Source: a virus
Taxonomy: Duplodnaviria > Heunggongvirae > Uroviricota > Caudoviricetes
DNA length: 38,211 bases
Reading direction: 5' to 3' (one strand)
Virus record (IMG/VR): IMGVR_UViG_2695420600_000008
Shown here: positions 1 through 35,101 of the stretch, piece after piece
Numbering within the stretch: position 1 is the first letter of the stretch
Layout: each line of letters opens with the position of its first letter
The notes under the pieces: generated by a model
What the model was told of the DNA's origin: nothing
The model's database searches: none
The model's input: the letters and a program-made list of their open reading frames with translations, nothing else
Position numbers and translations under genes: made by a program

Positions 1-190
1 TAAGTGATACTGGTTGTCTGGAGATTCAGGGGGCCAGTCTACCACCCCTGATGTCAGGTAGGAAAACACCATATGTTTCTGCTCTGTTTTTCCTTAGAAA
101 TAGGCATCCTTGCTGGAACAAAGCGAGCAGCTATATTGACTCTATGTTGTGAGTGTGTTGATCCGTTCTGAGTTAATACATTTAAGTTGC

Positions 191-1300
191 TCACTCTGTT
201 TCTGCTATCCATTCCGGGATTTTTGCCTCAAGCTCAAGCTGCGTGGTAAAGCCGCTGTTATCAATGGTGTGCTCGGCTTTTGCAATAATCCAGTCCTGAT
301 TATCAATCTCGCTTTTAAATCCTGTTACCGTGCCATGCATTTCGGGGTAGAGTTCTGCACGTCCATGCGCCAGTGTGATGGAGAATGATGCGGCTCCGCG
401 TTGTAGCTGCTGCCACTTTGCCGCCGCTGCACGTCTTGCTGCCTGCTCGTTCTGATAAGTTTTGCGTAACACAAACACGTTGCCTTCCGCACCTTCCATA
501 TAGTCGCCTTCCCGGCTGCTGCTTTTCTCCTTTTTTGGTTTTGACGGTTTGCGGCGTTTCACGCTGACTTTTTTCTTTTTCCCGTAATTAAGATCAAGCC
601 AGTAAGCGCGTACCCCCGTATACGCTTCGCGGTCAGCAATGCGGAACTGATGGCGATCGCCGCTGCTGCGTGTGATGGCGAACGAGGGCAACGGCTGGCC
701 CTGTGCGTTCACGCCACCACCGGGCATGATGAATAACAGATTACCGCTTTTTACCGTGGTGATTGCGCCCAGCATTTCCGCCATGCGCGTAAGGAAGGAC
801 ATGTCGCTTTCTTCGGTCTGGTCGGCGTGGTCGATTTCGATATCCATCAGCATTTCGCTGATTTGCGGTTTCAGACCATACCGATGAGCGATGGCGGATA
901 CCACACGCTCAACGGTCACATCATGCCAGGACACCTCACGTTTAACGTTAAATTCAGCCCGAAAATCTGCGCTTCTGGCTGAAACAGTCAGCCTGTCCGG
1001 CGGTCCTTCGTGAGCGATTTCATCAACAATGTAAGTGCCTTTTTCTGTCAGCGGTTCTCCCTTCCAGCCAATGAGAACCGTCAGGCGCGCGCCCCGTGGC
1101 GGTAGCTGCAACTGACCATCCGCATCATCCAGCGTGATGGTGAGCTGGTCCGCCTCAAATCCCCGGTTGTCGGTCAGTGACAGGCTCATCAGGCGCTCTG
1201 CCACGCCTGACAGCGTTTTACCCTCCGCGAGAATATCAAAATCCGGCATTTTCACGGGGTCTGTGCCCTGACTGAGCAATTGCATGGTGGTGTCGGTCAT
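191..1300 (-). CDS. D: P2-type tail protein gpD (late control D family)
   Basis: ORF 191..1432 (-); preferred start is the Met at 1300 (MTDTTMQLL...). Internal basic linker KKKKVSVKRRKPSKPKKEK and overall pattern match the gpD family as I recall it. Confidence 0.8.
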   Translation of the reverse strand: MTDTTMQLLSQGTDPVKMPDFDILAEGKTLSGVAERLMSLSLTDNRGFEADQLTITLDDADGQLQLPPRGARLTVLIGWKGEPLTEKGTYIVDEIAHEGPPDRLTVSARSADFRAEFNVKREVSWHDVTVERVVSAIAHRYGLKPQISEMLMDIEIDHADQTEESDMSFLTRMAEMLGAITTVKSGNLLFIMPGGGVNAQGQPLPSFAITRSSGDRHQFRIADREAYTGVRAYWLDLNYGKKKKVSVKRRKPSKPKKEKSSSREGDYMEGAEGNVFVLRKTYQNEQAARRAAAAKWQQLQRGAASFSITLAHGRAELYPEMHGTVTGFKSEIDNQDWIIAKAEHTIDNSGFTTQLELEAKIPEWIAETE

Positions 1301-1457
1301 CTGCTCCCTCCCTGTGTGGCATGGTCGCATGTGCGTGCGGAGGGGGTTACTGCTTTTTGTTGTCGCCGTGGCGGGAGAATGGCGCAGGGGTGAGATTACG
1401 CGCGTGGTGGGTGATGATTGTTGCCGAATCATTTAACGGATACAAGGGGTTGAAGCT

Positions 1458-2642
1458 ATGAGTGAAACTCGTTTTCATGGTGCCCGTGTTACGGAAAATA
1501 CCGACCTGGTAACAGCGATTAACGATGTTGATTCCAGCGTTATCGGTATCGTGGCAACGGCGGATGATGCGGACGCGGAGCTGTTCCCGCTGAACAAGCC
1601 CACACTGCTGCCCCGCGTCAATGACGTGCTGGGAAAATGCGGAACAACGGGGACGCTTTATCGTGCGCTTAAGGCCATCGCAGACCAGGTGAGCACAAAG
1701 GTGATCGTCGTTCGCGTGGCTGAACACAAAGAAGAAGACGGAAAAACGCAGGATCAACTGGTTATCGGTGGTTCTGAATCTGACGGCAGCTATACGGGGA
1801 TGTATGCGCTGCTTGTTGCAGAGCAGGATGAAAGCATCGGATACCGTCCGCGTATTCTGGCCGCGCCGGAGCTGGACACGGAGGCGGTGACAAAATCCCT
1901 GTGCGTGATTGCGGGTAAACTGCGCGCGTTTGTGTATGCCTCATGTCATGACTGTAACACGATGGCTGAGGCAATTACCTACCGCCAGAAATTCAACGAA
2001 CGTGAGGTGATGCTCTTATGGCCGGACTTCATCGCCTACAACCCGAAAAGTGGCAAAAACGAAACGTTCCCCGCGCCTGCCTATGCGTGCGGCCTTCGTG
2101 CGTACATTGACCATGAGCAGGGCTGGCACAAATCGCTGTCCAACGTTCCGGTTAAAAATGTGCTGGGGATGTCCAGGCATGTGTTCTGGTCGTTGCAGGC
2201 CGAAGACAGTGATGCCAACAGCCTCAACAACAAAGAAATCACGACCATTATTCGTCGCAACGGGTTCCGCTTCTGGGGCAACCGCACACCGGAAACGAAC
2301 GCCTACATCTTTGAGGTGTATACCCGAACCGCACAGGTGCTGGCTGATTCAATTGCGGAAGCGCAGTTTGAAACCATCGACAGTCCACTGACGCCTGCGA
2401 ACGTGAAGGATGTTATCGGTGCCATCAGGGCAAAACTGGATTCACTGGTTACTGCCGGGAAACTGATTGGGGCGTCGTGCTGGTATGACGTGGTGGATAA
2501 CGGCACCACGAATTTACGTCAGGGGCGCGTGCGTATTCGCTACAAATATACGCCTGTTCCCCCGCTGGAAGACATGGAGCTTTACCAGTCGTTTACTGAT
2601 GAATTCTTTGGTCCCGCATTTGCGGTGCTGGGAGGTGCCTGA
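1458..2642 (+). CDS. FI: contractile tail sheath protein (P2 gpFI-like)
   Basis: 394-aa ORF; C-terminal motifs WPDF...GLRA.IDHEQGWHK.LSNV...RRNGFRFWGNRT...YTRTAQV...YTPVPPLE match my recollection of P2 FI; followed directly by the tube gene. Confidence 0.85.
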   Translation: MSETRFHGARVTENTDLVTAINDVDSSVIGIVATADDADAELFPLNKPTLLPRVNDVLGKCGTTGTLYRALKAIADQVSTKVIVVRVAEHKEEDGKTQDQLVIGGSESDGSYTGMYALLVAEQDESIGYRPRILAAPELDTEAVTKSLCVIAGKLRAFVYASCHDCNTMAEAITYRQKFNEREVMLLWPDFIAYNPKSGKNETFPAPAYACGLRAYIDHEQGWHKSLSNVPVKNVLGMSRHVFWSLQAEDSDANSLNNKEITTIIRRNGFRFWGNRTPETNAYIFEVYTRTAQVLADSIAEAQFETIDSPLTPANVKDVIGAIRAKLDSLVTAGKLIGASCWYDVVDNGTTNLRQGRVRIRYKYTPVPPLEDMELYQSFTDEFFGPAFAVLGGA

Positions 2643-3154
2643 TGGCTGTACCAAAACATCTTCGCTTTTTTACGCTGTTTGTGGATGGTGAAAACGAAGT
2701 GGGTAAGGTGACGTCCGTCACTCTGCCTAAGCTGACGCGCAAAACCGACAGCTACCGGGGTGGTGGCATGATGGGAGCGGTAAGTATTGATCTCGGCCTG
2801 GATGACTCCGCGCTTGATGCGAGCTTTGTCATGGGGGGCGCAGTTCGTGAGCTGTTCCTTAAGTATGGCGGCACGATTGACGGTACGCTGCTGCGTTTTG
2901 CGGGTGAATACTACACCGACGCTGAAAGCGACCTGTATGAAGTCGAAATGCGCGGACGTGTGACGGAAATTGATATGGGGGAAGCCAAACAGGGCGAAGC
3001 CACATCACACACTTACGCCATTAAAAACACCTACTACAAGCTGAGTGTTAACGATCGCCCGTTGTGGGAGATTGACCTGCTGAACTTCATTTACCGGAAG
3101 GACGGCAGGGACATTGTGCCCGATCGCATCCGTTCCGCGCTCGGGCTTGGCTGA
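2642..3154 (+). CDS. FII: tail tube protein (P2 gpFII-like)
   Basis: 170-aa ORF; N-terminal F.LFVDG...VTLPKLTRK...YRGGGM resembles P2 FII; start overlaps FI stop. Confidence 0.85.
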   Translation: MAVPKHLRFFTLFVDGENEVGKVTSVTLPKLTRKTDSYRGGGMMGAVSIDLGLDDSALDASFVMGGAVRELFLKYGGTIDGTLLRFAGEYYTDAESDLYEVEMRGRVTEIDMGEAKQGEATSHTYAIKNTYYKLSVNDRPLWEIDLLNFIYRKDGRDIVPDRIRSALGLG

Positions 3155-3208
3155 TAAGTAATATGCAGGCGGCGCAGTGCGTCGCCTCTGACTGAAAGGA
3201 GTTTCCTG

Positions 3209-3574
3209 ATGAAAGAGACGAAAAACATCGATACCGAAAACACGGTCGTTGCTGACACTGTGAAAGAAACCAGTGAGCGTGGCGTAAAACTTACCCAACC
3301 AATTGAGCGAGGCGGCGAAAAAATCACGTATGTGGAGATCACCGGGGCTATTGAGCAGGCTGGATCTCTGCGAGATTTGTCGCTGTCTGATGTGCTGAAT
3401 TTGAAAGCGGAATCCATGTTTACGCTGCTGTCACGCGTGACATCACCGCGACTGGATGAAGTGACGATCAAAAAAATGGCATCCCGTGACTTTATTCAGT
3501 TATGTGTGGTTGCCGTAAATTTTTTGAGCGGTGCGGACTCTGGCGAGAAGAACGAACAGGCGACGGAAGCCTGA
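3209..3574 (+). CDS. E: tail assembly chaperone gpE
   Basis: 121-aa ORF between tube and tape measure; contains slippery heptamer TTTTTTG (3520..3526) near its 3' end with an overlapping -1 frame ORF (3502..3738). Confidence 0.75.
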   Translation: MKETKNIDTENTVVADTVKETSERGVKLTQPIERGGEKITYVEITGAIEQAGSLRDLSLSDVLNLKAESMFTLLSRVTSPRLDEVTIKKMASRDFIQLCVVAVNFLSGADSGEKNEQATEA

Positions 3575-3738
3575 TCACGGTTGTGTGCTTTGAGCACATA
3601 GAAGACTTTGTGGCGGATATTGCCGCCATTTTTAACTGGTCGCCCGCCGAAATCTTCATGATGACGCCCGGCGAAGTGGTTAGCTGGCGTGAGCGGGCGG
3701 CACTTCGCAGCGGGAATGCAGACAATGAAGACTCTTGA
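3209..3738 (+). CDS. gpE+E' fusion produced by programmed -1 translational frameshift
   Basis: E frame reads aat-ttt-ttg (N F L) across 3518..3526; the -1 frame reads ttt-ttt-gag and stays open to the stop at 3736..3738. Same arrangement as the P2 E/E' frameshift as I recall it. Confidence 0.65.
3520..3526 (+). other. slippery heptamer TTTTTTG (E/E' -1 frameshift site)
   Basis: Sequence read directly; sits at the overlap of the E and E' reading frames. Confidence 0.65.
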
Positions 3739-6532
3739 TATCCGGGTCGCTTTCAGCGCCGTTGACAGGCTGACCCGGCCTGCCGAAAACGCCCGCCGCC
3801 TGATGGGGCAGTTTGGTGACTCCATCCAGCGAACGCAGGGGGCGATCAAAAATCTCGAGCGTCAGGCGCGTTCATTTGAGCGCGCCCGTGACGCTGTCAG
3901 TAAAGCGGATGCGGGCATCGTGAAAGCACGACGCCAGCTTAACGCCCTTAATCAGTTACAACGCACGGGTACAGTGCTCAGCGAAAAACAACAAAAGCTG
4001 ATGCAGCAGTTAAGCACCCGGCTTGAACGCCTGAATGAATCGCGCACACGGGAAATTCAGAAAATGCGGGAACTTGGCGGAGAGCTGAAACGCCACGGCA
4101 TTTCCCTGACAGGCAGCGATAACACCATCCAGCAGGCCATCAGACGCACCGGACAATACAACAACCAGCTTGAACGCGAACGGCGGGCGCTTGCGCGTGT
4201 AACGCAGGCGCGTGAGCGGTATTCACGCGCGCAGGAAACAGCGGGAAAACTGAAAACAGGTGGTGCGCTGGCAACAGGTGCGGCGGCAGCGGGCGGCTAT
4301 GCTGCCGGGCGTTTTTTGCAGCCCGCTATCGGGTTCGGGAAAGAGATGTCCCGTGTTCAGGCACTGACGCGAATCGATAAAAACAGCCCGCAGTTTAAGG
4401 CGCTGCGTGAGCAGGCGTTAAAACTTGGCTCTGAAACGCAGTTCACCGCAGGCGATGCCGCCAGTGGACAGGCATTTCTTGCAATGGCTGGTTTCACACC
4501 GCAGGCCATTCAGGCTGCGCTTCCCGGCGTGCTGAGCATGGCAACGGCTGGCGGTATGGACCTCGGCGAGACGGCGGATATTGGTTCCAATATCCTGACG
4601 CAGTTCGGCCTCTCTGCTGACCAGATGGACCGGGTCGGTGACACACTTACCGCAGCGTTTACCCGTACCAACACTGACCTTCGCGCACTGGGCGAAACCA
4701 TGAAATATGCAGGTCCGGTGGCGGGTAAGCTGGGAATATCGCTGGAGCAGGCCGCAGCGATGGCGGGCGTGCTGGCGAAGATGGGTATCAGGGGGAGTGA
4801 TGCAGGTACAGCGTTGCGTAAAAGCCTGGCCAATCTGTCATCACCGCCAAAGGCAGCGGCAGAAGCACTGAAAGAGCTGGGGGTGTCAGTTGCTGACGCC
4901 AAAGGCAAAATGCGCCCGATGGAGAATGTGCTGGCCGATCTCTATAAAGCCACCCGCAAATACGGGGAGGTTGACCGGGTATCGTTCTTTAAGGACATTG
5001 CCGGAGAAGAGGCTTTCACATCATTTATGGGCCTCGTTGATGCGGCAGGTGACGGCTTCTTAGCCAAACTGAGAAAAGAACTTGAAGGCGCGCGCGGTGA
5101 GGCAGAACGCACGGCAAAGGTTATGGCCAATAACCTTGATGGCAACCTGAAATCACTCGGCAGTGCATGGGAAGGTCTGCGTATTCGCATCAGTGATCTG
5201 GTTGACGGTCCGCTGCGTTCTGTCACGCAGTGGCTCACGCGGGTTGTCTCAAAGGTGACGGCGCTGGCGCAGGCCCACCCGGCACTGACGCGCCAGTTAC
5301 TGATAGCGGGAGGCGCACTGCTGGCGACAACAGCAACGGTTGGTTCGTTGTCTCTGGTTATTGGGGTGCTTCACGGGAAGCTGGCTACGTTGCGTCTCGG
5401 TTTTTCTCTCCTGACCGAATCAATGAATGTTGTCAGGGTTCTGCCTGCATTATGGGGAATGGTGACGGGTTCCGTTTCTTTACTTGGTGGCGCTATCGGG
5501 GCGCTGTTCAGTCCGGTTAGTCTTATCGTGGCTGCGCTTGCCGGAGCTGCCGTTCTTATCTGGAAATACTGGGATCCCATCAGGGCATTTTTTGCCGGGG
5601 TGTTCAGCGGGATTATGGAAAGGCTGACCCCGTTGCGCGAAACCTTTGAACGGTTTGGCCCTGTTTTTGATGTCGTGCGCGATGGGATTATTCAGGTCTT
5701 TAACTGGTTTAAATCGCTGCTGTCACCGATGGAGTCCAGCAAGGAAACGCTGGATAAATGTGCCAGTGCTGGCGAGATATTCGGTAACGTTCTTGGCGGT
5801 GCGTTACAACTTGTTCTGACACCTGCAAAAATGCTACTGGATACGCTGGCGTGGATACTTGAAAAACTTGGCGTCCTTCCGGATGAAGCGGAAAGGGCGC
5901 GCAAGAAAATCGAAGACGCACAGCGTGCGGCCATTCTTCAGGACAAGGTTGCCTTGCTTCAGGGGGACCTGGCGAAAATCAATCCGCCGAAGCCTGTGGA
6001 AAATGGCAATGGCACCGGAGGTGATAAACCCAAAGACAACAAACCGCTCACAGACAGCAATACCGGGACGCTACGCAGACTCAGCAAAATTGCTGATAAC
6101 ACAGGTAAGCTGGTTGATGAGACGAAAAAACGCATTGGCCCCGGCGATATTGTCTTTAAGAACCTGCCCCGCGCACTTGCTGTTCGTGGGGAGTGGCAGG
6201 AGCGGAAGATTGCGCAGGTCAGTAAGCCTGCCCCCGCAATTAATATCACACCCGTGGTCCCGGCTCCGCTGCCTCCGGCGCTGGTCCCTGTTGTTGCGGC
6301 CAGCTCCCGCCCGGTGGCGGAGGCCATACGCTCTCCAGTGGCATCAGTTCCTGTAACTTCCCGTAACCGGGAGCCTGTTGCCTCCGGATTTGGTGGTGAA
6401 ATTCATGTTCATCTGCATAACGTTGTTACGCAGAATCCCCGCGAACTGGCGAAACTGGTCGGTGAAATGGTCAGGGCAGAAATGGAACGGCGCGCCCGTG
6501 CCGGGCGTGGCAGTTTTTACGATAAAGATTGA
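3716..6532 (+). CDS. T: tail tape measure protein (P2 gpT-like)
   Basis: Long ORF (3689..6532); alternative starts GTG 3689, ATG 3716, ATG 3725. Ala/Gly-rich central region, hydrophobic segment LLIAGGALLATTATVGSLSLVIGVL, positioned after E/E'. Confidence 0.85.
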   Translation: MQTMKTLDIRVAFSAVDRLTRPAENARRLMGQFGDSIQRTQGAIKNLERQARSFERARDAVSKADAGIVKARRQLNALNQLQRTGTVLSEKQQKLMQQLSTRLERLNESRTREIQKMRELGGELKRHGISLTGSDNTIQQAIRRTGQYNNQLERERRALARVTQARERYSRAQETAGKLKTGGALATGAAAAGGYAAGRFLQPAIGFGKEMSRVQALTRIDKNSPQFKALREQALKLGSETQFTAGDAASGQAFLAMAGFTPQAIQAALPGVLSMATAGGMDLGETADIGSNILTQFGLSADQMDRVGDTLTAAFTRTNTDLRALGETMKYAGPVAGKLGISLEQAAAMAGVLAKMGIRGSDAGTALRKSLANLSSPPKAAAEALKELGVSVADAKGKMRPMENVLADLYKATRKYGEVDRVSFFKDIAGEEAFTSFMGLVDAAGDGFLAKLRKELEGARGEAERTAKVMANNLDGNLKSLGSAWEGLRIRISDLVDGPLRSVTQWLTRVVSKVTALAQAHPALTRQLLIAGGALLATTATVGSLSLVIGVLHGKLATLRLGFSLLTESMNVVRVLPALWGMVTGSVSLLGGAIGALFSPVSLIVAALAGAAVLIWKYWDPIRAFFAGVFSGIMERLTPLRETFERFGPVFDVVRDGIIQVFNWFKSLLSPMESSKETLDKCASAGEIFGNVLGGALQLVLTPAKMLLDTLAWILEKLGVLPDEAERARKKIEDAQRAAILQDKVALLQGDLAKINPPKPVENGNGTGGDKPKDNKPLTDSNTGTLRRLSKIADNTGKLVDETKKRIGPGDIVFKNLPRALAVRGEWQERKIAQVSKPAPAINITPVVPAPLPPALVPVVAASSRPVAEAIRSPVASVPVTSRNREPVASGFGGEIHVHLHNVVTQNPRELAKLVGEMVRAEMERRARAGRGSFYDKD

Positions 6533-6538
6533 GGAGTC

Positions 6539-7033
6539 ATGGCCATGATGATGATCTACGGCATGTTTGTTTTTGAGCTGCGTACATTGCCGCATCAGCA
6601 GTTACAGCAAAACAAAAGCTGGCGGCATGTGAAAAATGAACGCGTTAACCGTTCGGCAAGCTGGCAGTATATCGGTGCAGGTGATGAGCGCATCGTTCTT
6701 TCTGGTGTGCTTTATCCTGAAATTACAGGTGGCGAAGTGTCGCTGTCGCTGCTGACCACGCAGGCGTATACAGGACGACCCTGGCCTCTGATTGATGGCG
6801 TCGGGCAGATTTACGGCATGTATGTCCTGACCGAAACGAATACGACCCGCTCCGAGTTTGATCGCTACGGTAAGGCGAAAAAGATAGAATTTTCACTGAC
6901 TCTTGAACGCTGTGATGAGGATTTGCGGGAGCGCCTGCAATCCTCATCGTTCAGCGATATGCTGTCCGGCTTCAAAGATAAGGTAACATCATCCCTTAAC
7001 AGCGCGGCCAGTTCAGTTAAAGGGTTGTTCTGA
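6539..7033 (+). CDS. U: tail protein gpU
   Basis: 164-aa ORF; GAGGAG Shine-Dalgarno upstream; motifs FVF.L.T.P.Q.LQ...SWRH and LSG.L.PE.TGG resemble P2 gpU. Confidence 0.8.
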   Translation: MAMMMIYGMFVFELRTLPHQQLQQNKSWRHVKNERVNRSASWQYIGAGDERIVLSGVLYPEITGGEVSLSLLTTQAYTGRPWPLIDGVGQIYGMYVLTETNTTRSEFDRYGKAKKIEFSLTLERCDEDLRERLQSSSFSDMLSGFKDKVTSSLNSAASSVKGLF

Positions 7034-7037
7034 TTTA

Positions 7038-7068
7038 ACACAAAAACCGCTAATGGTCAGATTAGCGG
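7038..7068. terminator. bidirectional rho-independent terminator between convergent U and invertase genes
   Basis: Hairpin aaccgctaat-ggtcag-attagcggtt flanked by T-runs on both strands. Confidence 0.6.
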
Positions 7069-7656
7069 TTATTTTGTTTCCTGACTCTTCTCTATTGTTC
7101 CGATTGATTCTCCTGCGGGGTGGTAACGATAAATCGTCGATATACCAATGCCGTAAATTATTGCCAGTTGTTTTCTGTCGTGCCCGTTTTTGATCAGCCT
7201 TGCTATTTGCTCATGCTGTTCTTTTGTCAGCTTCGGTCGACGTCCGCCTGTGCGCCCCCGTGCGCGTGCTGCCGCCAGTCCGGCCAGTGTACGTTCAACA
7301 ATTAATTCACGTTCCATTTCAGCCAGGGCACCCATCACGTGGAAGAAAAAACGCCCCATTGGAGAAGATGTATCTATGCTGTCGGTCAGACTGCGAAAAT
7401 TAATTCCTCGCTCCCGTAGTTCCCCGACGAGAGAAATCAGATGTTTCATGCTTCGCCCGAGGCGATCCAGTTTCCAGACAACCAGCGTGTCACCTTTTTG
7501 AAGGCGCTTTAAAGCGCGTTTTAATCCCGGTCGGTCTGTCTTTGTCCCGCTTAATTTATCTTCAAATATTTGTTCACATCCTGCACAAACAAGAGCGTTT
7601 CGTTGCAGGTCTGTATTCTGGTCATTTGTTGATACCCTTACATAGCCAATCAGCAC
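7069..7656 (-). CDS. serine DNA invertase (Gin/Cin/Pin/Hin family)
   Basis: ORF 7069..7674 (-); likely GTG start at 7656 giving MLIGYVRVSTNDQNTDLQRNAL..., the canonical N-terminus of Gin-family invertases with the catalytic serine in the VSTNDQ motif; GGGAG SD upstream; C-terminal helix-turn-helix (GISTIYRY). Confidence 0.9.
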   Translation of the reverse strand: MLIGYVRVSTNDQNTDLQRNALVCAGCEQIFEDKLSGTKTDRPGLKRALKRLQKGDTLVVWKLDRLGRSMKHLISLVGELRERGINFRSLTDSIDTSSPMGRFFFHVMGALAEMERELIVERTLAGLAAARARGRTGGRRPKLTKEQHEQIARLIKNGHDRKQLAIIYGIGISTIYRYHPAGESIGTIEKSQETK

Positions 7657-7683
7657 GCTGAATCTCCCGTCCAAAAGCGCAAA

Positions 7684-7744
7684 TCATGCCATGCAGGCCG
7701 GAAACGGCCATTATCTAAAACCTCGGTTTACAGGAAACGGTAAA
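7684..7744. repeat. left arm of 61-bp perfect inverted repeat (pairs with 10778..10838)
   Basis: Reverse complement of 7684..7744 is identical to 10778..10838; contains the 26-bp gix-like site plus a 27-bp outer flank. Confidence 0.9.
7711..7736 (+). other. gix/hix-like 26-bp invertase crossover site 1 (TTATCTAAAACCTCGGTTTACAGGAA)
   Basis: Differs at one position from the Mu gix sequence as I recall it (TTATCCAAAACCTCGGTTTACAGGAA); central TC dinucleotide at 7723..7724. Confidence 0.85.
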
Positions 7745-8747
7745 CAAGGCTGGTAACGCCGTGCAAAAAAATGGCGATACGTTGTCCGGTGGACTTACTT
7801 TTGAAAACGACTCAATCCTTGCCTGGATTCGAAATACTGACTGGGCAAAGATTGGGTTTAAAAATAATTCGGATGCAGACACCGATTCCTACATGTGGTT
7901 TGAAACAGGCAACAACGGCAATGAATATTTCAAATGGAGACACCGCATCATTGGCACCCGGCCTAAAGACCTGATGAATCTTAAATGGAATGCTTTGTCT
8001 GTTCTTGTTGAAGCCCTTTTCAGCAGTGAAGTGAAAATATCGACAGTCAATGCACTGAGGATATTTAATTCATCTTTTGGTGCCATTTTTCGTCGTTCTG
8101 AAGAATGCCTGCATATCATCCCTACACGAGAGAATGAAGGGGAAAATGGTAATATAGGGCCACTACGCCCCTTTACGCTTAATCTCAGAACTGGCCGGAT
8201 AAGCATGGGGCATGGTCTTGATGTTACAGGGGATATATTTGCAAACCGTTTTGCAATTAACAGTAGTACCGGCATGTGGATTCATATGCGTGACCAGAAT
8301 GTTATTTTGGGACGTAATGCGGTATCCACTGATGGTGCTCAGGCTTTGCTCCGTCAGGACCATGCCGACCGCAAATTTATGATTGGCGGTCTGGGAAATA
8401 AGCAATTTGGCATCTACATGATTAATAACTCAAGGACAGCCAATGGCACCGATGGTCAGGCGTACATGGATAATAACGGGAACTGGCTTTGCGGCTCGCA
8501 AGTTATTCCCGGCAACTATGGCAATTTTGATTCCAGATATGTGAAAGATGTTCGACTTGGTTCACAGCAATATTATGGAGTGAACAACTGGCAAACATGG
8601 AATTTTCAGTGCCCGTCAGGCTATGTACTGACGGGGATTAACGTACAGGATACCGGAAAAAACTCTGCCGATAATATTGCAGGCGTTCATTACAGGCCAG
8701 TGCAAAAGTATATAAATGGCACTTGGTATAATGTGGCGAGTATTTAA
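7737..8747 (+). CDS. tail fibre C-terminal variable cassette Sv' (no start of its own; expressed only after inversion fuses it to H)
   Basis: Frame is open from crossover site 1 through ORF 7761..8747; encodes [46 protein letters not shown]...YVKDVRLG...[11 protein letters not shown], which matches the C-terminal portion of P2 gpH as I recall it. Confidence 0.8.
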
Positions 8748-8748
8748 T

Positions 8749-9276
8749 ATGATGCACTTAAAGAACATAAAAGCAGGTAATGCTAAAACAGTGGAGCAGT
8801 ATGAGTTAACAAAGAAGCACGGAGTCATCTGGCTTTACTCTGAGGACGGAAAAAACTGGTATGAGGAAGTGAAGAACTTTCAGCCAGACACAATAAAGAT
8901 TGTTTACGATGCAAATAATATTATTGTCGCCATCACCAAAGATGCCTCCACGCTTAACCCTGAAGGTTATAGCGTCGTTGAGGTTCCTGATATTACAGCT
9001 AATCGTCGTGCTGATGATTCCGGTAAGTGGATGTTTAAGGACGGAGCTGTGGTTAAACGGATTTATACGGCTGACGAACAGCAACAACAGGCCGAATCAC
9101 AAAAGGCCGCATTGCTTTCCGAAGCTGAATCAGTCATCCAGCCGCTGGAACGCGCTGTCAGGCTGAATATGGCGACGGACGAGGAACGCACACGACTGGA
9201 AGCATGGGAACGCTACAGTGTTCTGGTCAGCCGTGTGGATACGGCAAAGCCAGAATGGCCACAAAAGCCTGAGTAA
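8749..9276 (+). CDS. tail fibre assembly protein (tfa, P2 G / Mu U family) paired with cassette Sv'
   Basis: ORF 8716..9276; start ATG 8749 directly after the Sv' stop; [11 protein letters not shown]...[13 protein letters not shown]... typical Tfa N-terminus. Confidence 0.85.
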
Positions 9277-10785: not shown

Positions 10786-10838
10786 TTCCTGTAAACCGAG
10801 GTTTTAGATAATGGCCGTTTCCGGCCTGCATGGCATGA
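10778..10838. repeat. right arm of 61-bp inverted repeat (pairs with 7684..7744)
   Basis: Perfect reverse-complement identity to 7684..7744. Confidence 0.9.
10786..10811 (-). other. gix-like crossover site 2 (exact reverse complement of site 1)
   Basis: TTCCTGTAAACCGAGGTTTTAGATAA read directly. Confidence 0.85.
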
Positions 10839-10841
10839 CTA

Positions 10842-11994
10842 AATAGCTGCGCTTAATACCGCTACACTTTTGCCAGCCCATGTTTGCCTCCGGGGAATGG
10901 GCTGACGGTTTCCATAAAATGGCGAACTTTTTTCAACAGTTGCCACATTGAGCTGCACTGATGATTACGCGTTATTGTGTCGTGAAGTGCCTGCCATAGC
11001 CGTTCAACATGATTCACCCATGGCGAGTAAACCGGCTGATAAATGACCCTGAACTTCGGGTTCTCCTTCAGCCAGCTCTGTGTTTCCCGGCTTTTGTGGA
11101 TAATGTAGTTGTCCACGATCAGCGTGATGGTTTTCGCCCGACGGTATGTCGCTTTAAGCCGCTTCAGCAGGCTGATGAACAGCGCCGAACTTTTGCTGTT
11201 GCCGCCCACACAGCTGACTTTACCTGTCCCGCTGTGCAGCGCTCCGGCCAGATAATATTTTTCATTCTGTCCCGGCGTGACCACCCGTTTTTGCTGTCCG
11301 CGCAGTTGCCAGTCCGCACCGATTTTGGGATTAAGATGGATATCCACTTCATCTTCATAAAAGACCGGATGCTCTGCGCTGCATTCGTCCAGTGCTTTAT
11401 GGATTGCTGCCATCTTTTCATCTTTATGCGGGTCACGGATACGCAGAGTTGGCGCAGCCCTTCGCCACACAATCCCCGCAGACGGCAACCAGCGGCGAAC
11501 GGTTCCGGCATTTAACTGGCAACCGGTTATCTCATTGATTTTTATTGCCAGCAGTTCTGTACTCCAGCGTGAACGCTGGTAGCCAAAGTCGCCGGGAGAA
11601 TGTTTTACCAGCTCACGTAACAGTGTGCAGATATGCTCAAACGGCCAGCGACGGGCACGCCCGGCAGGTAATGATTTCAGTCCCTCAACACCCGACTGCG
11701 TGAACCAGTTAATCCAGCGTCCAACAGAGGAACGGGCGCAGCAGAGCGTTCTGGCAACGTCGCTGACACGGTCGCCCCGGTGCAGCATCAGCATGGCAGT
11801 CAGTCTGCGGGCATAATTTTTATCGTGTGTTTTATGGATGGCTTTCTGCATCAGGCGTCGTTCGTCACGGGAAATTGGTGCTATGATCGGCATTGCTCAG
11901 TCCGGTTGGTGATTTGTTTTGATTTGGCGATTGATCAGATCGCACAATCCGGGCTAAGTTCCCTCAAAGTGATCTACTATTCCGCGCAGCTATT
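10842..11994 (-). mobile_element. complete IS630 insertion sequence (1153 bp) with TA target duplication in a CTAG site
   Basis: Element length 1153 bp; flanked by C-TA (10839..10841) and TA-G (11995..11997), the expected IS630 CTAG/TA signature; imperfect terminal inverted repeats starting aatagctgcgc; encodes a 343-aa transposase. Confidence 0.9.
10862..11893 (-). CDS. IS630 transposase (IS630/Tc1-mariner superfamily DDE transposase)
   Basis: 343-aa ORF wholly inside the element; size and position match IS630 transposase. Confidence 0.9.
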   Translation of the reverse strand: MPIIAPISRDERRLMQKAIHKTHDKNYARRLTAMLMLHRGDRVSDVARTLCCARSSVGRWINWFTQSGVEGLKSLPAGRARRWPFEHICTLLRELVKHSPGDFGYQRSRWSTELLAIKINEITGCQLNAGTVRRWLPSAGIVWRRAAPTLRIRDPHKDEKMAAIHKALDECSAEHPVFYEDEVDIHLNPKIGADWQLRGQQKRVVTPGQNEKYYLAGALHSGTGKVSCVGGNSKSSALFISLLKRLKATYRRAKTITLIVDNYIIHKSRETQSWLKENPKFRVIYQPVYSPWVNHVERLWQALHDTITRNHQCSSMWQLLKKVRHFMETVSPFPGGKHGLAKV

Positions 11995-13284
11995 TAGACC
12001 TCCTTTAATTTTGGCCCCGTGGCTGACAGATATAGCACCTGTTCTCAGATTTATAGCGAATGGCCTTAATGGGCCGATATTACCGTTTTCGCCTTGTCCT
12101 TCAGCCGTCGGAATGAAATGAAGAAAATCTTCTGAACGACGGAAAATTAGACCGAAGGTATCATTGAAAATTCGCAGCGCATTCACCGTGCCAATTTTCA
12201 GTTCTCCGGTCATTTTATCGCCGGAACGCTGAACGGCGTTACCAGCCTTGTTTACCGTTTCCTGTAAACCGAGGTATTCGATAACGGCAGCAACGGTCGA
12301 TTTCGCAAGAATATCCCGCCCGACTTTTGTCAGGGTTGCCAGGCTGGCGACATCATTCCCCGTAAAATACGGAAACCTGTCTGCCGCAGTAGCAAGCCCC
12401 GCCAGCGCCGTCAGAGTGGCATCTTTCGGTTGCTTACCCGCAAGCGCGTTAGTCATGGTGGTCGCAAAATTCGGGTCGTTGCCCAGCGCCGCCGCCAGCT
12501 CGTTCAGTGTGTTCAGTGCATCAGGCGAAGAGTCTACAAGTGCGGCAATCGCAGCCATAACGAAAGCCGTGCTTGCGATTTGGGTATTATTCGTTCCCTG
12601 TCGCGCAGTTGGTGTTGTTGGCGTTCCGGTCAGTGCCGGGCTGTTTAATGGGGCTTTCTTGTTCGTTTCATCCATTACTGCCTTAACGGCTTTTGGTGTC
12701 GCTGCCAGCGTTTCAGACGTGCTGTTGGTGGCGTTGCTGAGCTGGACAAGGCCTTTTGCGGTCAGCGAGGCGTCCGGGTGACGTCGTGACTGTTCATGCT
12801 CTTTCAGTTTGTCATCCACGTAATTCACTGTGGCCATCACCATGGTGTTATCCACGGTAAGCGCCACAGTGGCAGTGCTGGATACGGTCAGAATGGTGCG
12901 AAATGTTTGTGCACGTCCGGATCCTTCGGCAACGGTTGGCTTGTAACTTTCGGCAGTATTGCCTACCGCGATCAAATCGCCGTGCTCATCAAACACACCA
13001 ATTTCCCGGATCCAGAATCCGCCCGTTTCAGGAGGAATAACCAGCTCCGCAATAATGTGGTTCTGATGTGTTGCGTCCAGGGTGACGCGATTAACGGTAT
13101 GTCGCCACACCTCATGCACAAGACGGGTCTGCTTACTGTCTGGCGTGGGTAAAGTACCGCCGCCGTCACCCACGGCCATATGTGTCAGGCGGACAGGTTT
13201 CCCATCTGGCGCGGTTGCCTGCGCTAATTTTTTTGCACCCGTATCGGTGATAATGGTTTTAAATTTTCGTGTTGTGGTACTCAT
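11977..13284 (-). CDS. H: tail fibre protein gpH: constant N-terminal part fused in the current orientation to a truncated third cassette and terminated inside IS630 (functionally truncated fibre)
   Basis: 435-aa ORF; N-terminal ~330 aa resemble P2 gpH (…TAKGLVQLSNATNSTSETLAATPKAVK…AAVIEYLGLQETV); after crossover site 3 it encodes a collagen-like stub (…[22 protein letters not shown]…GAKIKGG) and then reads LNSCAE-stop from IS630 sequence. Confidence 0.8.
   Translation of the reverse strand: MSTTTRKFKTIITDTGAKKLAQATAPDGKPVRLTHMAVGDGGGTLPTPDSKQTRLVHEVWRHTVNRVTLDATHQNHIIAELVIPPETGGFWIREIGVFDEHGDLIAVGNTAESYKPTVAEGSGRAQTFRTILTVSSTATVALTVDNTMVMATVNYVDDKLKEHEQSRRHPDASLTAKGLVQLSNATNSTSETLAATPKAVKAVMDETNKKAPLNSPALTGTPTTPTARQGTNNTQIASTAFVMAAIAALVDSSPDALNTLNELAAALGNDPNFATTMTNALAGKQPKDATLTALAGLATAADRFPYFTGNDVASLATLTKVGRDILAKSTVAAVIEYLGLQETVNKAGNAVQRSGDKMTGELKIGTVNALRIFNDTFGLIFRRSEDFLHFIPTAEGQGENGNIGPLRPFAINLRTGAISVSHGAKIKGGLNSCAE
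12259..12284 (-). other. gix-like crossover site 3 (TTATCGAATACCTCGGTTTACAGGAA on the coding strand), in-frame junction of constant H
   Basis: Two mismatches to sites 1/2 (TCGAAT vs TCTAAA); unlike sites 1 and 2 it has no in-frame TAA, so H reads through it; 12233..12275 is also the reverse complement of the inner flank of site 1. Confidence 0.8.
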
Positions 13285-20811: not shown

Positions 20812-21648
20812 TCAGAAGTCAGCCAGCTGGTCGGAGGCTGCGCCCGTTGCGGTGAACCGGTTCTGCGGATCGCCGTCCTGCGTGCGCAGTTTTTCCTTCA
20901 GTGCTGTCAGCTCCGTGGTCAGTAAAGTGATTTTCTGGCTGTCCTGCTGATGGCGTGTTTCCAGCGCATTAAAACGGTCGATAATGTCGGCCTGTGACGT
21001 TGCGACGCTTTCCACCGCTTCCTGAATACGGGAGAAACTGGCGTCATCCGCTTTGCGGCCACGACCAATAATCCCCATTACGCGGTTAAACCACTGGGTG
21101 CCTTCTTCCTGGCGTTGTTCTGCCATTTCGATGATTTCAGACTCGATGGCTTCGGAGATAAGCGGTGCTTCACCCTGGATACTGTTGAACGTCATCACCG
21201 CCTGACGTTGCTGTGCCGTGAATTTCAGGCGCTCAGTGCCCAGGCTTGCCGGGGTGTCGGTCATCGCCAGCCCGACCAGATAGGCGCGCCCGTTAACGGA
21301 GAACTGCGGGTGCAGTTCGATACTGGAATAGATTTTCTTGCCGTCCGCGACAAGCTGCTTCATGCGCTCGGTCGGTTCGATTTCTGCATACAGCGCAGTA
21401 CGTCCGGCCAGCGGACCTTCCGTAATGTCTTCCGTACTCAGTGCGGTGACATCGCCCATTGCGGAAAATTCGCTTGACGGGCATGGCGAGAGATAGTGCT
21501 CAACGTTCACGCGGGCAGCGTAAACATCCGGGTTGAAGTTCTCGGCGGCTTCACGCAGATGCACCGGACTGATTTCACGGCCATCAACAGTTGATCCGGA
21601 GACAGCCACGCGAAACTTTTTGCGGGATGTCTTTTTTTCATTAGCCAT
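20812..21648 (-). CDS. O: capsid scaffolding protein gpO
   Basis: ORF 20812..21681; preferred start 21648 (MANEKK…); motifs KYLVGLAMTDTPASLGTE and N-terminal F.V.V.G.T.DGR.IS resemble P2 gpO. Confidence 0.8.
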   Translation of the reverse strand: MANEKKTSRKKFRVAVSGSTVDGREISPVHLREAAENFNPDVYAARVNVEHYLSPCPSSEFSAMGDVTALSTEDITEGPLAGRTALYAEIEPTERMKQLVADGKKIYSSIELHPQFSVNGRAYLVGLAMTDTPASLGTERLKFTAQQRQAVMTFNSIQGEAPLISEAIESEIIEMAEQRQEEGTQWFNRVMGIIGRGRKADDASFSRIQEAVESVATSQADIIDRFNALETRHQQDSQKITLLTTELTALKEKLRTQDGDPQNRFTATGAASDQLADF

Positions 21649-21802
21649 AGTTTTTGCCCCTCTGACTGGTTCTTCAGTCATGATGGCAAAGCGTAACAGG
21701 CTGATACAAAGGGCTTTTGTTGTAAGAAAACGGCCAGAACAGGGGGTTAAGGAGAACGGTTTCGCGCGCGGGTAATCTTCCTGTAATTACTCAGGGGGAG
21801 CA

Positions 21803-24600: not shown

Positions 24601-25091
24601 CGCGCTTCGCTTGTCTGCTGCTTCGCCGGGGCATAAAAAATTTATGCCCCGACTCTCCAGCTCCTGTATCAGTCAGATAATTTCACGACGCTTTCCTGCT
24701 GATTGCCATCATCGACAGTCAGACTCTTACGCAATCCCACCTCGTTGACTGCATATTCTCGCCGTCTCAGTGCGATTTTGACGGCCTTACCTTTCACCCC
24801 ATCAAATCAAAAGCCCTCACGTCTTTTTCACGCTCAGCGTGAGAAATACAGCCATTCTGTTGTATCTCTGCGACATCGTTCAGGGAATGCTATTTACCCC
24901 CTGAAACGCGGGCTGTTCCCCCGTCACCTGCGCGCAGAAAAAACGCGTTTTTTTGTGCATGCACGGATCCTTGACGGATCCAGCCGCCACGCGGGCCGGA
25001 AGGGCAAAAAGTCGTTCAAAAAAATTGTGCAAATTTGTGCACTATTGTGCATTTATAAAATCAACTAAAAAACACCTAGTGTGACTTACCT
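24601..25091. other. probable cos/packaging region (non-coding, repeat- and palindrome-rich)
   Basis: Non-coding gap between portal and the end of the early operon, where P2 cos lies; contains palindrome ggggcataaaaaatttatgcccc (24628..24650), palindrome aaaaaacgcgtttttt, direct repeat acggatcc x2 and phased TTGTGCA repeats. The exact P2 19-nt cos sequence was not found. Confidence 0.4.
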
Positions 25092-32721: not shown

Positions 32722-33033
32722 ATGTCAATAGAGATATCAAAGAAGCTAAAAGCAATTCGAGAATCTGAGGGGCTTAGTCAGGCAAAGTTCGCGGATTCAA
32801 TAGGTATTGCGGTTGGTACGGTTAAGCAATACGAGACTGGTATTCGAGGTGTGGGAACGGAGGTTTTACTGAAAATCACAATGCACCCGGAATTTAAAAA
32901 ATACACTACGTGGTTGATGAGTAACGAAACAAATGAGGCTGCTGGGCAGATCAGTCCTTCTCTCTCCCCTGATGGGCCAGAAAACACATCGTCTTCTCAA
33001 AAATCCCGCAAGACTGGCACACAGCCCGGCTAA
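32722..33033 (+). CDS. C: P2 C-type immunity repressor
   Basis: ORF 32620..33033; preferred start ATG 32722 giving 103 aa; helix-turn-helix LSQAKFADSIGIAVGTVKQYETG and the C-terminal …FKKYTTWLMSNE…GQISP… pattern resemble P2 C. Confidence 0.75.
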   Translation: MSIEISKKLKAIRESEGLSQAKFADSIGIAVGTVKQYETGIRGVGTEVLLKITMHPEFKKYTTWLMSNETNEAAGQISPSLSPDGPENTSSSQKSRKTGTQPG

Positions 33034-33082
33034 TCATGGAACGCTGGGGGCATGGTGGTCTTGTAACGCTGGGGCTTCACGA

Positions 33083-34060
33083 ATGAGCATAAAATCAATT
33101 CCGGGAGGGTATCTTCTTGACATGCGTCCTGAGGGGCGTAAAGGCAAACGCATTCGCAAAAAATTTAAAACGAAATCGGATGCAGTTTTATATGAGCGGT
33201 GGGTGCTGGCGCAACAGCATAACAATGAGTGGAAAGGAAACTCCATTGATCGCCGTCCGCTGTCAGTGCTTATTGACTTGTGGTGGAAATACCACGGCCA
33301 GCTAATGAAGTCAGGGCATAACACGCGCCTTAAATTGCTGCGCTTGAGTGAGGCAATGGATGACCCGTGCGTGCATAAACTTAATACAACGATGCTCACC
33401 GAGCTACGTGTGTCCAGGATAGAGCAGGGGATACAGCCCAGCACCATAAATCGAGAGATTGGGGCGTTAAGCGCGATGTTTACCGCACTCATCTCATCCG
33501 GCCATTTTCTTAACGATAACCCCGTTCAAGGCCTTAAAGGAATGAAGGTTAACGAGCGTGAAATGGGATATCTGAGTAAGTCTGAATGTGTTCAGTTGCT
33601 GGATGCACTGGCTGAAAATCCCGATGAACGGCTGGCCGTCGAAATCCTTCTGTCGACCGGGGCGCGATGGGGCGAGGTAGCGGCACTGGAGCAGCGCCGT
33701 GTTCTTCATTGTCGAATCACTTTTTCAAAAACGAAGAACAGCAAAAACCGTACCGTTCCTATTTCTGAAAGCCTGTTTGAAAAGATCAAAAAACGGGGCG
33801 GGAAACTGGTGTTTCCGACGCTGGATTATTCATTGGTTCGCGATGTCATCAAAACGGTCGCACCTGATGTTCCTGACGGCCAGGCTGTTCATGCGCTGCG
33901 CCACACCTTCGCCAGTCATTTCATGATGAACGGCGGCAATATTCTGACGCTCCAGAAAATTCTGGGGCACGCAAAGATTCAGACAACGATGATTTATGCC
34001 CATCTTGCGCCGGATTACTTGCAGGATGCGGTGAGGTTTAATCCCTTGGGAGGAATGTAA
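33083..34060 (+). CDS. int: P2-type integrase (tyrosine recombinase)
   Basis: ORF 32933..34060; preferred start 33083 (MSIKSIPGGYLLDMRPEGRKGKRIRKKF…), ~325 aa; C-terminal catalytic motifs LSTGARWGE, HALRHTFASHFMMNGG.ILTLQKILGH and MIYAHLAPDYLQDA (catalytic Tyr) match P2 Int. Confidence 0.9.
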   Translation: MSIKSIPGGYLLDMRPEGRKGKRIRKKFKTKSDAVLYERWVLAQQHNNEWKGNSIDRRPLSVLIDLWWKYHGQLMKSGHNTRLKLLRLSEAMDDPCVHKLNTTMLTELRVSRIEQGIQPSTINREIGALSAMFTALISSGHFLNDNPVQGLKGMKVNEREMGYLSKSECVQLLDALAENPDERLAVEILLSTGARWGEVAALEQRRVLHCRITFSKTKNSKNRTVPISESLFEKIKKRGGKLVFPTLDYSLVRDVIKTVAPDVPDGQAVHALRHTFASHFMMNGGNILTLQKILGHAKIQTTMIYAHLAPDYLQDAVRFNPLGGM

Positions 34061-34062
34061 CT

Positions 34063-34563
34063 ATGGAAATAAAAAAACCTACAAAAAAAGAGTTATATGA
34101 CTATTTACTATCGAAATATATAGAAGATAAATGCAAAGAAGAAGCTGATGAAATCAATAAGAAGTCGATGAGTCGTGTCAAAAAACATAAAGAGCGGCTG
34201 ATGGAGATTACGCCAGAAATCTTCTTCCGTTTCTTGTCTGAGAAGGGGGTCTCCAGTGTCTGCCCTTCATGTGGATCGTCGCGATTATCTGTTCCAGAAA
34301 GTATGGATCTTTGCTGGGATAAAAATAAGAAACCAGAAAATTTTAACAATCTACCCCTGGAGGAACAGAGTGAGTTAATTAAAGAGAACATAAAGCATTA
34401 TGTATCTTATGCTTTTTTGGGTGATGTTAAGAGCATACCTGATATGCGCAAAACTTATTACACGCTGCATTGCCTGAATTGTGGTTACCTGAGCCTTTAT
34501 CGTACGTCTGCGGTGCTGAAGTGGTTGGAGAAAGACAAAGCGCAGGATGGTGATAATGGGTAA
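34063..34563 (+). CDS. hypothetical zinc-ribbon protein (166 aa), AT-rich moron gene
   Basis: Low GC by eye; two CxxC pairs (CPSCGSS … CLNCGY); lysine/glutamate-rich N-terminus; no homologue recognised. Confidence 0.55.
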   Translation: MEIKKPTKKELYDYLLSKYIEDKCKEEADEINKKSMSRVKKHKERLMEITPEIFFRFLSEKGVSSVCPSCGSSRLSVPESMDLCWDKNKKPENFNNLPLEEQSELIKENIKHYVSYAFLGDVKSIPDMRKTYYTLHCLNCGYLSLYRTSAVLKWLEKDKAQDGDNG

Positions 34564-35101
34564 TGTAGCAAGAAATCTTTTCGGTAATTCAGCAGGTAGT
34601 GTGTCGCATTCTGAGCGTGATGTGCTTTATCATGGTGGCGATGGCGGCAGTAGTGGAGGCGGAATGTCAGATAAACTTGAAAGGCGAATTGAGCGGCTCG
34701 AAGGTGATTTATCGCTAACAAGAAACGACCTTGCGACGCTTGCTGAACGCACTACAAACCTCTCAACTAAAGCCGATGTTGGTGAGGTGAAAGGTGAACT
34801 CAAAGCAGACATAGCACATCTGAAAGGTGATCTTGAATGCGATATTGCGAATCTGAAAGGTGAGCTTAAATCTGATACAGCTAACCTGAAAGAGCAGCTC
34901 AAATCAGACATTAACAGCCTGAAGGGTGAGCTTACCGAAGCGATGGATAAACGCTTTGACAAGATTATGGATGAGATGAATCGGCGGTTTGACAAGGTTG
35001 ATGATAATACGAAGTGGCGTTGGAGTGGCATTATTGTGCCAGTGTGCACAACCATTTTCACAGCGGCGGTTGCTGTATTTGTTGCTAAATTTGTTGGCTG
35101 A
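34547..35101 (+). CDS. hypothetical tail-anchored coiled-coil membrane protein with five 11-residue repeats (184 aa)
   Basis: Repeats LKGELKADIAH / LKGDLECDIAN / LKGELKSDTAN / LKEQLKSDINS / LKGELTEAMDK; glycine-rich N-terminus; C-terminal transmembrane helix WSGIIVPVCTTIFTAAVAVFVAKFVG; overlaps the upstream gene by 17 nt. Confidence 0.55.
   Translation: MVIMGNVARNLFGNSAGSVSHSERDVLYHGGDGGSSGGGMSDKLERRIERLEGDLSLTRNDLATLAERTTNLSTKADVGEVKGELKADIAHLKGDLECDIANLKGELKSDTANLKEQLKSDINSLKGELTEAMDKRFDKIMDEMNRRFDKVDDNTKWRWSGIIVPVCTTIFTAAVAVFVAKFVG

Follow-up and report, generated by a model that had tools for sequence, protein, structure and literature searches.

How a P2-like prophage can carry its tail genes from FI to U in reverse relative to the rest of its late genes, and how the neighbouring tail gene D could then still be expressed as a late gene, are the questions raised by a 38,211-nucleotide (nt) stretch of viral DNA (IMG/VR record IMGVR_UViG_2695420600_000008; hereafter the window, meaning the whole stretch at its full length). 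In phage P2, FI-FII-E-E'-T-U-D form one operon that is driven by the Ogr-dependent late promoter P_F (PMC3931495). A tblastn comparison of 45 open reading frames (ORFs) of the window with a complete P2 record showed that all the late genes from Q/P to D are present in the window, with homologues detected for Q, P, O, N, M, L, R, S, V, W, J, I, H, FI, FII, E, T, U and D, and that FI, FII, E, T and U lie on the opposite relative strand while the remaining late genes are collinear and on the same strand. By its late-gene set and its P2-like order, the orientation of FI-U aside, the prophage is assigned to the Peduoviridae. An earlier note, made from the letters of the window, had described the FI-U block as inverted with respect to D and to the P2 order, and both the Pfam assignments and the tblastn comparison bore this out. 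The data given below indicated that the flip is an ordinary arrangement, since an extensive and already known group of P2-like phages, P88 and its relatives, inherits this order as a fixed trait, and we hold with good confidence the explanation that it was inherited clade-wide from one ancient inversion and that FI and D are controlled from a shared dyad.

The genes on either side of the junction could be assigned one by one. D (191-1300, - strand) encodes a baseplate hub or 'late control D' protein of 369 amino acids with the Pfam domain Phage_GPD, having 48% identity with P2 gpD and 96-99% identity with the D proteins of the genus Xuanwuvirus. On the + strand lie the tail sheath gene FI (1458-2642; Pfam sheath domains, 46% identity with P2 FI, which is on the opposite relative strand), the tail tube gene FII (2642-3154; Pfam Phage_tube, E-value 2e-46, matching P2 FII), the overlapping tail assembly chaperone genes E (3209-3574, 32% identical to P2 E) and E' (ORF at 3502-3738), both of which are annotated at equivalent positions in phage P88, the tape measure gene T (3689-6532; Pfam PhageMin_Tail, matching P2 T) and the tail protein gene U (6539-7033; Pfam Phage_P2_GpU, 46% identity with P2 U). 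The longest ORF of T begins at a GTG at 3689, and the start equivalent to the P88 annotation is 3725. The longest ORF of D extends over 191-1432 on the - strand from an ATG at 1432; the true start is the ATG at 1300, since the CAT at 1298-1300 is invariant across genera, a Shine-Dalgarno sequence precedes it and the P88 annotation agrees. D and FI are divergent and separated by a spacer of 157 nt (1301-1457), consistent with the 158 bp given in the earlier note as the distance between the two starts. As this is a matter of orientation, chance is not at issue, and the arrangement recurs in independent complete genomes.

The distribution of the flipped order among relatives carries the first part of the explanation. 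Positions 1-9000 of the window matched phages P88, P884B11, phiSM, 500465-2, PhiR44_2 and Chuche at 94-96% identity by megablast, each match being a single collinear piece across D, the spacer and FI-U and mostly including the adjoining invertase gene, and the remaining prophage sequence matched the same P88-type phages. Against the type phage P88, identity was 96.5% over 84% of positions 1-9000 and 95.8% over 73% of positions 9001-34000, which is borderline but consistent with the genus criterion of the International Committee on Taxonomy of Viruses (ICTV), about 70% identity over genome length, and on this comparison the prophage is placed as P88-like in the genus Xuanwuvirus. P88 and phiSM are annotated on the same strands as the window. 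P88 and the other Xuanwuvirus phages, including phiSM of Citrobacter rodentium, share with the window the layout D (-), FI-U (+), invertase (-) and fibre switch, an identical 157-nt spacer and an identical terminator after U, with DNA identity of 94-96% over 73-84% of the two stretches compared; the window differs from them by an insertion of the IS630 family, a third crossover site, different cargo beyond D and an ogr gene that falls outside it. The flipped order was also found in Reginaelenavirus, Reipivirus, Senquatrovirus (SEN5) and Novemvirus (phiT5282H), and the record of Serratia phage KSP20 has its gpD-like and gpFI-like genes deposited on opposite strands. Among the phage records listed as matches to both D and FI, those with D at least 62% identical have the two genes adjacent on opposite strands; in the nearest outgroup phages among the matches listed (D about 50-53% identical) the two genes are on the same strand and about 5 kb apart.

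One genome per GTDB species was also scanned for alignments to D, and 80 loci were returned. The inverted order, with FI divergent and directly upstream of D, was seen in every one of the 61 loci whose D was 60% or more identical, and the canonical order, with U directly upstream on the D strand, in every one of the 19 loci whose D was 54% or less identical. The 61 inverted loci span about 27 genera of Enterobacterales, including Salmonella, Klebsiella, Enterobacter, Serratia, Erwinia, Pantoea, Pectobacterium, Yersinia, Hafnia, Providencia, Morganella, Xenorhabdus and Photorhabdus. When D was placed in a neighbour-joining tree, the inverted loci fell together as a single clade (60 tips; stem branch length 0.10), and every canonical locus lay outside that clade. 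Having FI adjacent to and divergent from a D of at least 60% identity, the window prophage is assigned by sequence to this inverted-tail-module clade. In addition, the D|FI junction, scored at a coverage of 80% or more, was found in 1,114 of the 5,426 complete E. coli genomes examined. Phages with the flipped order are viable: P88 can be induced and is lytic, phiSM is an active phage and particles are formed by PP4/KSP20. Alignment to P2 and to related prophages, which the earlier note had proposed, thus revealed the inversion with respect to P2 together with relatives that share the order of the window; the unusual or local event that the note implied was not borne out, the flipped order being the norm across the clade, an outcome that the note itself had named as one that would refute it. 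Two database records that were met with in these comparisons deserve comment. In the phiSM record OR565851.1 (2294-4745) D is labelled 'ogr/Delta-like zinc finger' and FI is labelled 'late control gene D protein', so that the labels look shifted by one gene. A 226-kb contig filed under the Gram-positive 'Vagococcus sp. WN89Y' (NZ_JBQPOM010000071.1) holds D and FI genes 95-98% identical to those of the window prophage, which is most likely contamination by enterobacterial DNA.

The second part of the explanation concerns the D|FI spacer, where homologous spacers, first 8 and then 59 distinct ones, were aligned. Conservation in this divergent control region (1301-1457) was limited to separate elements that resemble parts of promoters. 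Across the 59 spacers, the non-coding columns with the strongest conservation were a TGT (1361-1363) and an A-N-A (1376-1378), which bound an Ogr/Delta-type activator dyad at 1361-1378, TGTCGCCGTGGCGGGAGA, of the form TGT-N12-AGA, with its centre between 1369 and 1370. TGT-N12-ACA is the hallmark of Ogr-dependent late promoters such as P2 P_F (PMC3931495); the perfect form was present in 34 of the 59 spacers and TGT-N12-AGA in 21, the window included, so that the window site departs from the hallmark by one mismatch. No exact TGT-N12-ACA was found in any late spacer of the window, and the AGA-ending sites emerged when one mismatch was allowed and relatives were compared. One of only two exact copies in the window, at 24858-24875, lies in the non-coding stretch after Q, possibly near cos, away from the late promoters. 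On the D strand a conserved TG-n-nAnnAT element at 1329-1321 forms the predicted extended -10 of a D promoter (TG-c-GACCAT, with conserved TG, A2, A5 and T6 columns), and on the + strand GATGAT at 1413-1418, with conserved nAnnAT columns, forms the predicted -10 of the FI promoter, P_F, at the same spacing from the dyad as in P2 P_F. At exactly 43 nt from the dyad centre, a hexamer of the form nAnnnT was present to the D side in 49 of the 59 spacers and to the FI side in 56, with 49 spacers having it on both, and other offsets were occupied in at most 8 spacers on the D side and in at most 14 for any other offset. Since the dyad is placed at about -55, transcripts are predicted to start near 1314 for D (-) and near 1425 for FI (+). 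The other conserved elements were a CGCGCGCG block (1330-1339), a weak -35-like GTGA (1390-1393), the start codon and Shine-Dalgarno sequence of D, and the leader, Shine-Dalgarno sequence and ATG of FI. A scan for the sigma-70 consensus returned no promoter in 1301-1457, as expected because the promoters would be activator-dependent. The search for two divergent late promoters that the earlier note had suggested for this spacer therefore yielded a predicted pair flanking one dyad.

The same layout was seen elsewhere in the family. Between O and P, the window has a single TGT-N12-AGA dyad (21721-21738) and -10-like elements on both strands, TAATCT at 21773-21778 (+) and TG-c-CATCAT at 21688-21680 (-), in the geometry of the D|FI spacer with the O side offset by one base. 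O has two candidate starts, the ATG at 21681 of the longest ORF and an ATG at 21648 that follows the Shine-Dalgarno sequence GAGGGG and gives the N-terminus MANEKK..., and the latter is probably the true start; with that start, the O/P spacer (21648-21802 region) would hold one dyad with -10-like elements on both sides. A CGCGCGCG-type block stands directly upstream of the predicted -10 of both D (1330-1339) and P (21764-21772). In P2, the spacer of P_O and P_P likewise contains a single dyad that is flanked to either side by a -10-like hexamer at 43-48 nt from the dyad centre, and the annotation of phage Smp131 treats P_P' and P_O' as a single site that is read from either strand (PMC3931495). 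The P2 P_P/P_O pair thus resembles D|FI in having a single dyad between -10-like hexamers, but its targets are genes for packaging and for the head, and it is ancestral in the family, whereas the D|FI pair occurs in the inverted clade only. At P2 P_F, the FI-side element is found at the same spacing as in the window and there is no mirrored -10. In sum, P2 (Peduovirus) is like the window in its gene set, in the order of its other late genes and in the spacing of the Ogr-type dyad and the -10 upstream of FI, and unlike it in that FI to U and D are on one strand, U and D overlap and a Z/fun slot lies between G and FI.

Taken together, these observations point to the following course of events. 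A single inversion in the ancestor of the clade, ancient rather than recent, programmed or artefactual, would have turned around a piece with one end a short way upstream of the FI late promoter and the other at the boundary between U and D, two genes that overlap in P2. This would have ended the co-transcription and translational coupling of D with U, and would have placed the dyad-symmetric Ogr-type site of the FI promoter beside the 5' end of D, while the former fibre-to-FI junction would have become convergent and been closed by a two-way terminator. D would then be transcribed from a promoter in the 157-nt spacer, P_D, because it is no longer part of the FI-U operon. One dyad (centre 1369/1370) would lie about 55 bp upstream of each of two back-to-back promoters, P_F directed rightward and the newly evolved P_D directed leftward, and we infer that D would remain under late control through this shared site. 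The view in the earlier note that the flip separates D from the FI promoter was correct insofar as co-transcription would have ended, but misleading in that D now adjoins the activator site of that very promoter. From the O/P comparison, the family seems to have used two-way activation from a single site already, and the inversion seems to have made a second instance of it. Whether the inversion was tolerated by virtue of the dyad symmetry, with a mirror -10 evolving and a second bidirectional late region uncoupling the dosage or timing of D from that of sheath and tube, is a conjecture to which we give an even chance.

Other origins of the flip have to be weighed against one ancient inversion. 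Its departure from the P2 order is the sole point that speaks for a misassembly, raised in the earlier note, or for a recent inversion private to the window genome; the occurrence of the D|FI junction in the 1,114 complete E. coli genomes and in independently sequenced phage genomes excludes misassembly and leaves this account with next to no probability. The serine invertase gene that abuts the block suggests another source, and serine invertases can use pseudo-sites, so that the enzyme might have flipped the block as a programmed switch or once at secondary sites. We rejected an invertase-driven flip because inversion of the Gin/Cin/Pin type relies on inverted crossover sites at both ends of the segment: the crossover core TTCCTGTAAACCGAGGT occurs at 7720-7736 (-), 10786-10802 (+) and 12259-12275 (+), all in the fibre region, and no further copy was found anywhere else in the window, block borders included, with up to 3 mismatches allowed. 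Nor did an inverted-repeat search find repeats linking the block borders (1301-1457 and 7034-7068), in agreement with the earlier note, so that no trace of a mechanism is left. In addition, SEN5 and phiT5282H have the flipped block with no invertase annotated between the fibre genes and U, and block orientation does not vary among the 61 loci scanned from the clade, which together make this account highly improbable; the invertase is part of a fibre switch and merely occupies the junction, as a neighbour of the block and not its cause. That the flipped order arose several times in separate P2-like lineages could draw on the other late-gene rearrangements known among P2-like phages, e.g., Smp131 (PMC3931495), but we consider it very unlikely, as there is a single inverted clade in the D tree, the split between inverted and canonical loci tracks D identity exactly and the spacer architecture is homologous throughout the inverted clade. 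A single inversion is accordingly favoured, with the caution that this history is drawn from a one-gene neighbour-joining tree without support values and a sample of 80 loci.

The control of D from the shared dyad leaves more room for doubt, and several points weigh against it. The predicted D -10, GACCAT, is weak, the predicted D leader is merely about 14 nt long, the window dyad ends in AGA instead of ACA, the conserved CGCGCGCG block beside the D-side -10 could serve something else, and motifs conserved between sequences that are themselves related do not amount to wholly independent evidence. Moreover, no match to an Ogr homologue was found in the window, where 190 nt remain beyond D, which places ogr outside it. 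In favour of the model, an Ogr homologue is located just beyond D in P88, phiSM and the Klebsiella and Salmonella relatives (P88 and four further relatives were tested), and one is annotated in E. coli O111. D might instead have a promoter independent of the dyad, whether constitutive, weak or answering to another regulator, for example through the CGCGCGCG block, with the symmetry being incidental. Such a promoter would accord with the poor D-side hexamer, with the GC block at 1330-1339 being conserved as strongly as the dyad and with the similar GC block upstream of the P -10. However, a D-side hexamer at the exact 43-nt offset in 49 of 59 diverged spacers would be difficult to account for if its distance from the dyad were under no constraint, and the mirror geometry around a dyad is also found at O/P in the window prophage and in P2. 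We therefore regard an independent D promoter as unlikely, though deserving of serious attention, and retain the shared dyad as the predicted control site of both FI and D.

The flipped arrangement is already known as data, as it is present in many annotated phage genomes and in five ICTV genera. In the accessible literature we found no mention of a clade-wide inversion or of a shared-dyad design, an earlier description in print being possible: the papers on P88, on SEN4/5 and on the 'Global diversity of P2-like viruses' do not use the words for inversion, rearrangement, gene order or orientation, and two hotspot papers and the phiSM paper likewise leave the flipped order undiscussed. The shared-dyad promoter model seems to be undescribed and to be a modest extension of known P2 regulation. 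The P2 order is thus not universal in the Peduoviridae, and annotators should not treat the flip as an anomaly or an assembly error. The inversion, present in about a fifth of complete E. coli genomes, is a clean marker, simple to score, of a large clade of P2-like prophages that spans Enterobacterales. Furthermore, where the activator site has dyad symmetry, flipping and splitting an operon may be possible with late control retained.

At the other end of the block, U (ending at 7033) and the invertase gene (ending at 7069) are convergent with a gap of 35 nt. The gap region holds a hairpin common to both genes (7045-7070) with a 10-bp stem and U-runs on both strands, which a terminator scan called as a terminator on both strands; it folds at -16.8 kcal/mol on the + strand (z-score -3.3) and at -15.7 kcal/mol on the - strand (z-score -2.9). 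With a GC-containing hairpin and a U-run on each strand it is classed from sequence as a two-way intrinsic terminator, and the convergent ends, the 35-bp gap and the common hairpin given in the earlier note were all confirmed. The loss of the Z/fun cargo position, which that note had proposed, was not supported, as the fibre|U junction still takes variable genes in relatives: it contains a DUF262 gene and one other gene in Reipivirus, and the invertase gene in Xuanwuvirus and the window. In Reipivirus ST16-OXA48phi5.4 (778-2681), the DUF262-domain gene and its companion occupy the interval from the fibre genes to the end of U; they are probably defence cargo, in the counterpart of the Z/fun slot. 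The interval from D to ogr is variable as well, and in E. coli O111 it contains a PIN-domain gene.

The gene occupying the junction in the window encodes a serine DNA invertase of the Gin/Cin/Pin type (7069-7674, -; Pfam Resolvase and HTH_7), and beyond it are two tail-fibre assembly genes identified by Pfam. As in the Gin system of Mu, the Cin system of P1 and the Pin system of e14, the serine invertase is located beside alternative fibre C-termini and chaperones with inverted crossover sites; this system switches fibre cassettes (about 7.7-12.3 kb), and the FI-U block, unlike these cassettes, is outside its sites. There are three crossover cores instead of the usual two, of which sites B and C are direct repeats of one another and inverted with respect to site A, and site B abuts the end of an insertion sequence (IS). 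Inversion between A and C would join the N-terminus of the fibre gene H to a C-terminus that is intact and resembles P2 H (7761-8747, 75% identity), and would also bring in a P2-G-like chaperone (8716-9276, 89% identical). The IS, of the IS630 family, lies at 10839-11997 in the variable part of H and carries a transposase ORF (10862-11893, -; DDE_3 and HTH_23) between 20-nt terminal inverted repeats (10839-10858 and 11978-11997). The H reading frame (11977-13284) stops a few codons past the end of the IS, and because the IS ends this frame, the fibre expressed in the present orientation is probably truncated.

The far end of the prophage is marked by an integrase gene (32933-34060), which is followed by two ORFs without a clear family (34063-35101) and then, up to 38179, by host genes of the btuC-like (FecCD), btuE-like (GSHPx) and btuD-like (ABC) types and an NlpC/P60 gene. 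The prophage is placed at the E. coli ihfA/btuC site, as the btu genes lie at one end and ihfA lies by the other end in O111. At the D end, the window diverges from the O111 prophages at position 39, and they match from position 40 on. A 190-nt query that included positions 1-39 gave 18,452 matches in 4,486 E. coli genomes, on chromosomes as well as plasmids; these multi-copy matches are probably due to positions 1-39 being an IS fragment, and the element at this edge probably sits in the variable cargo position between D and ogr.

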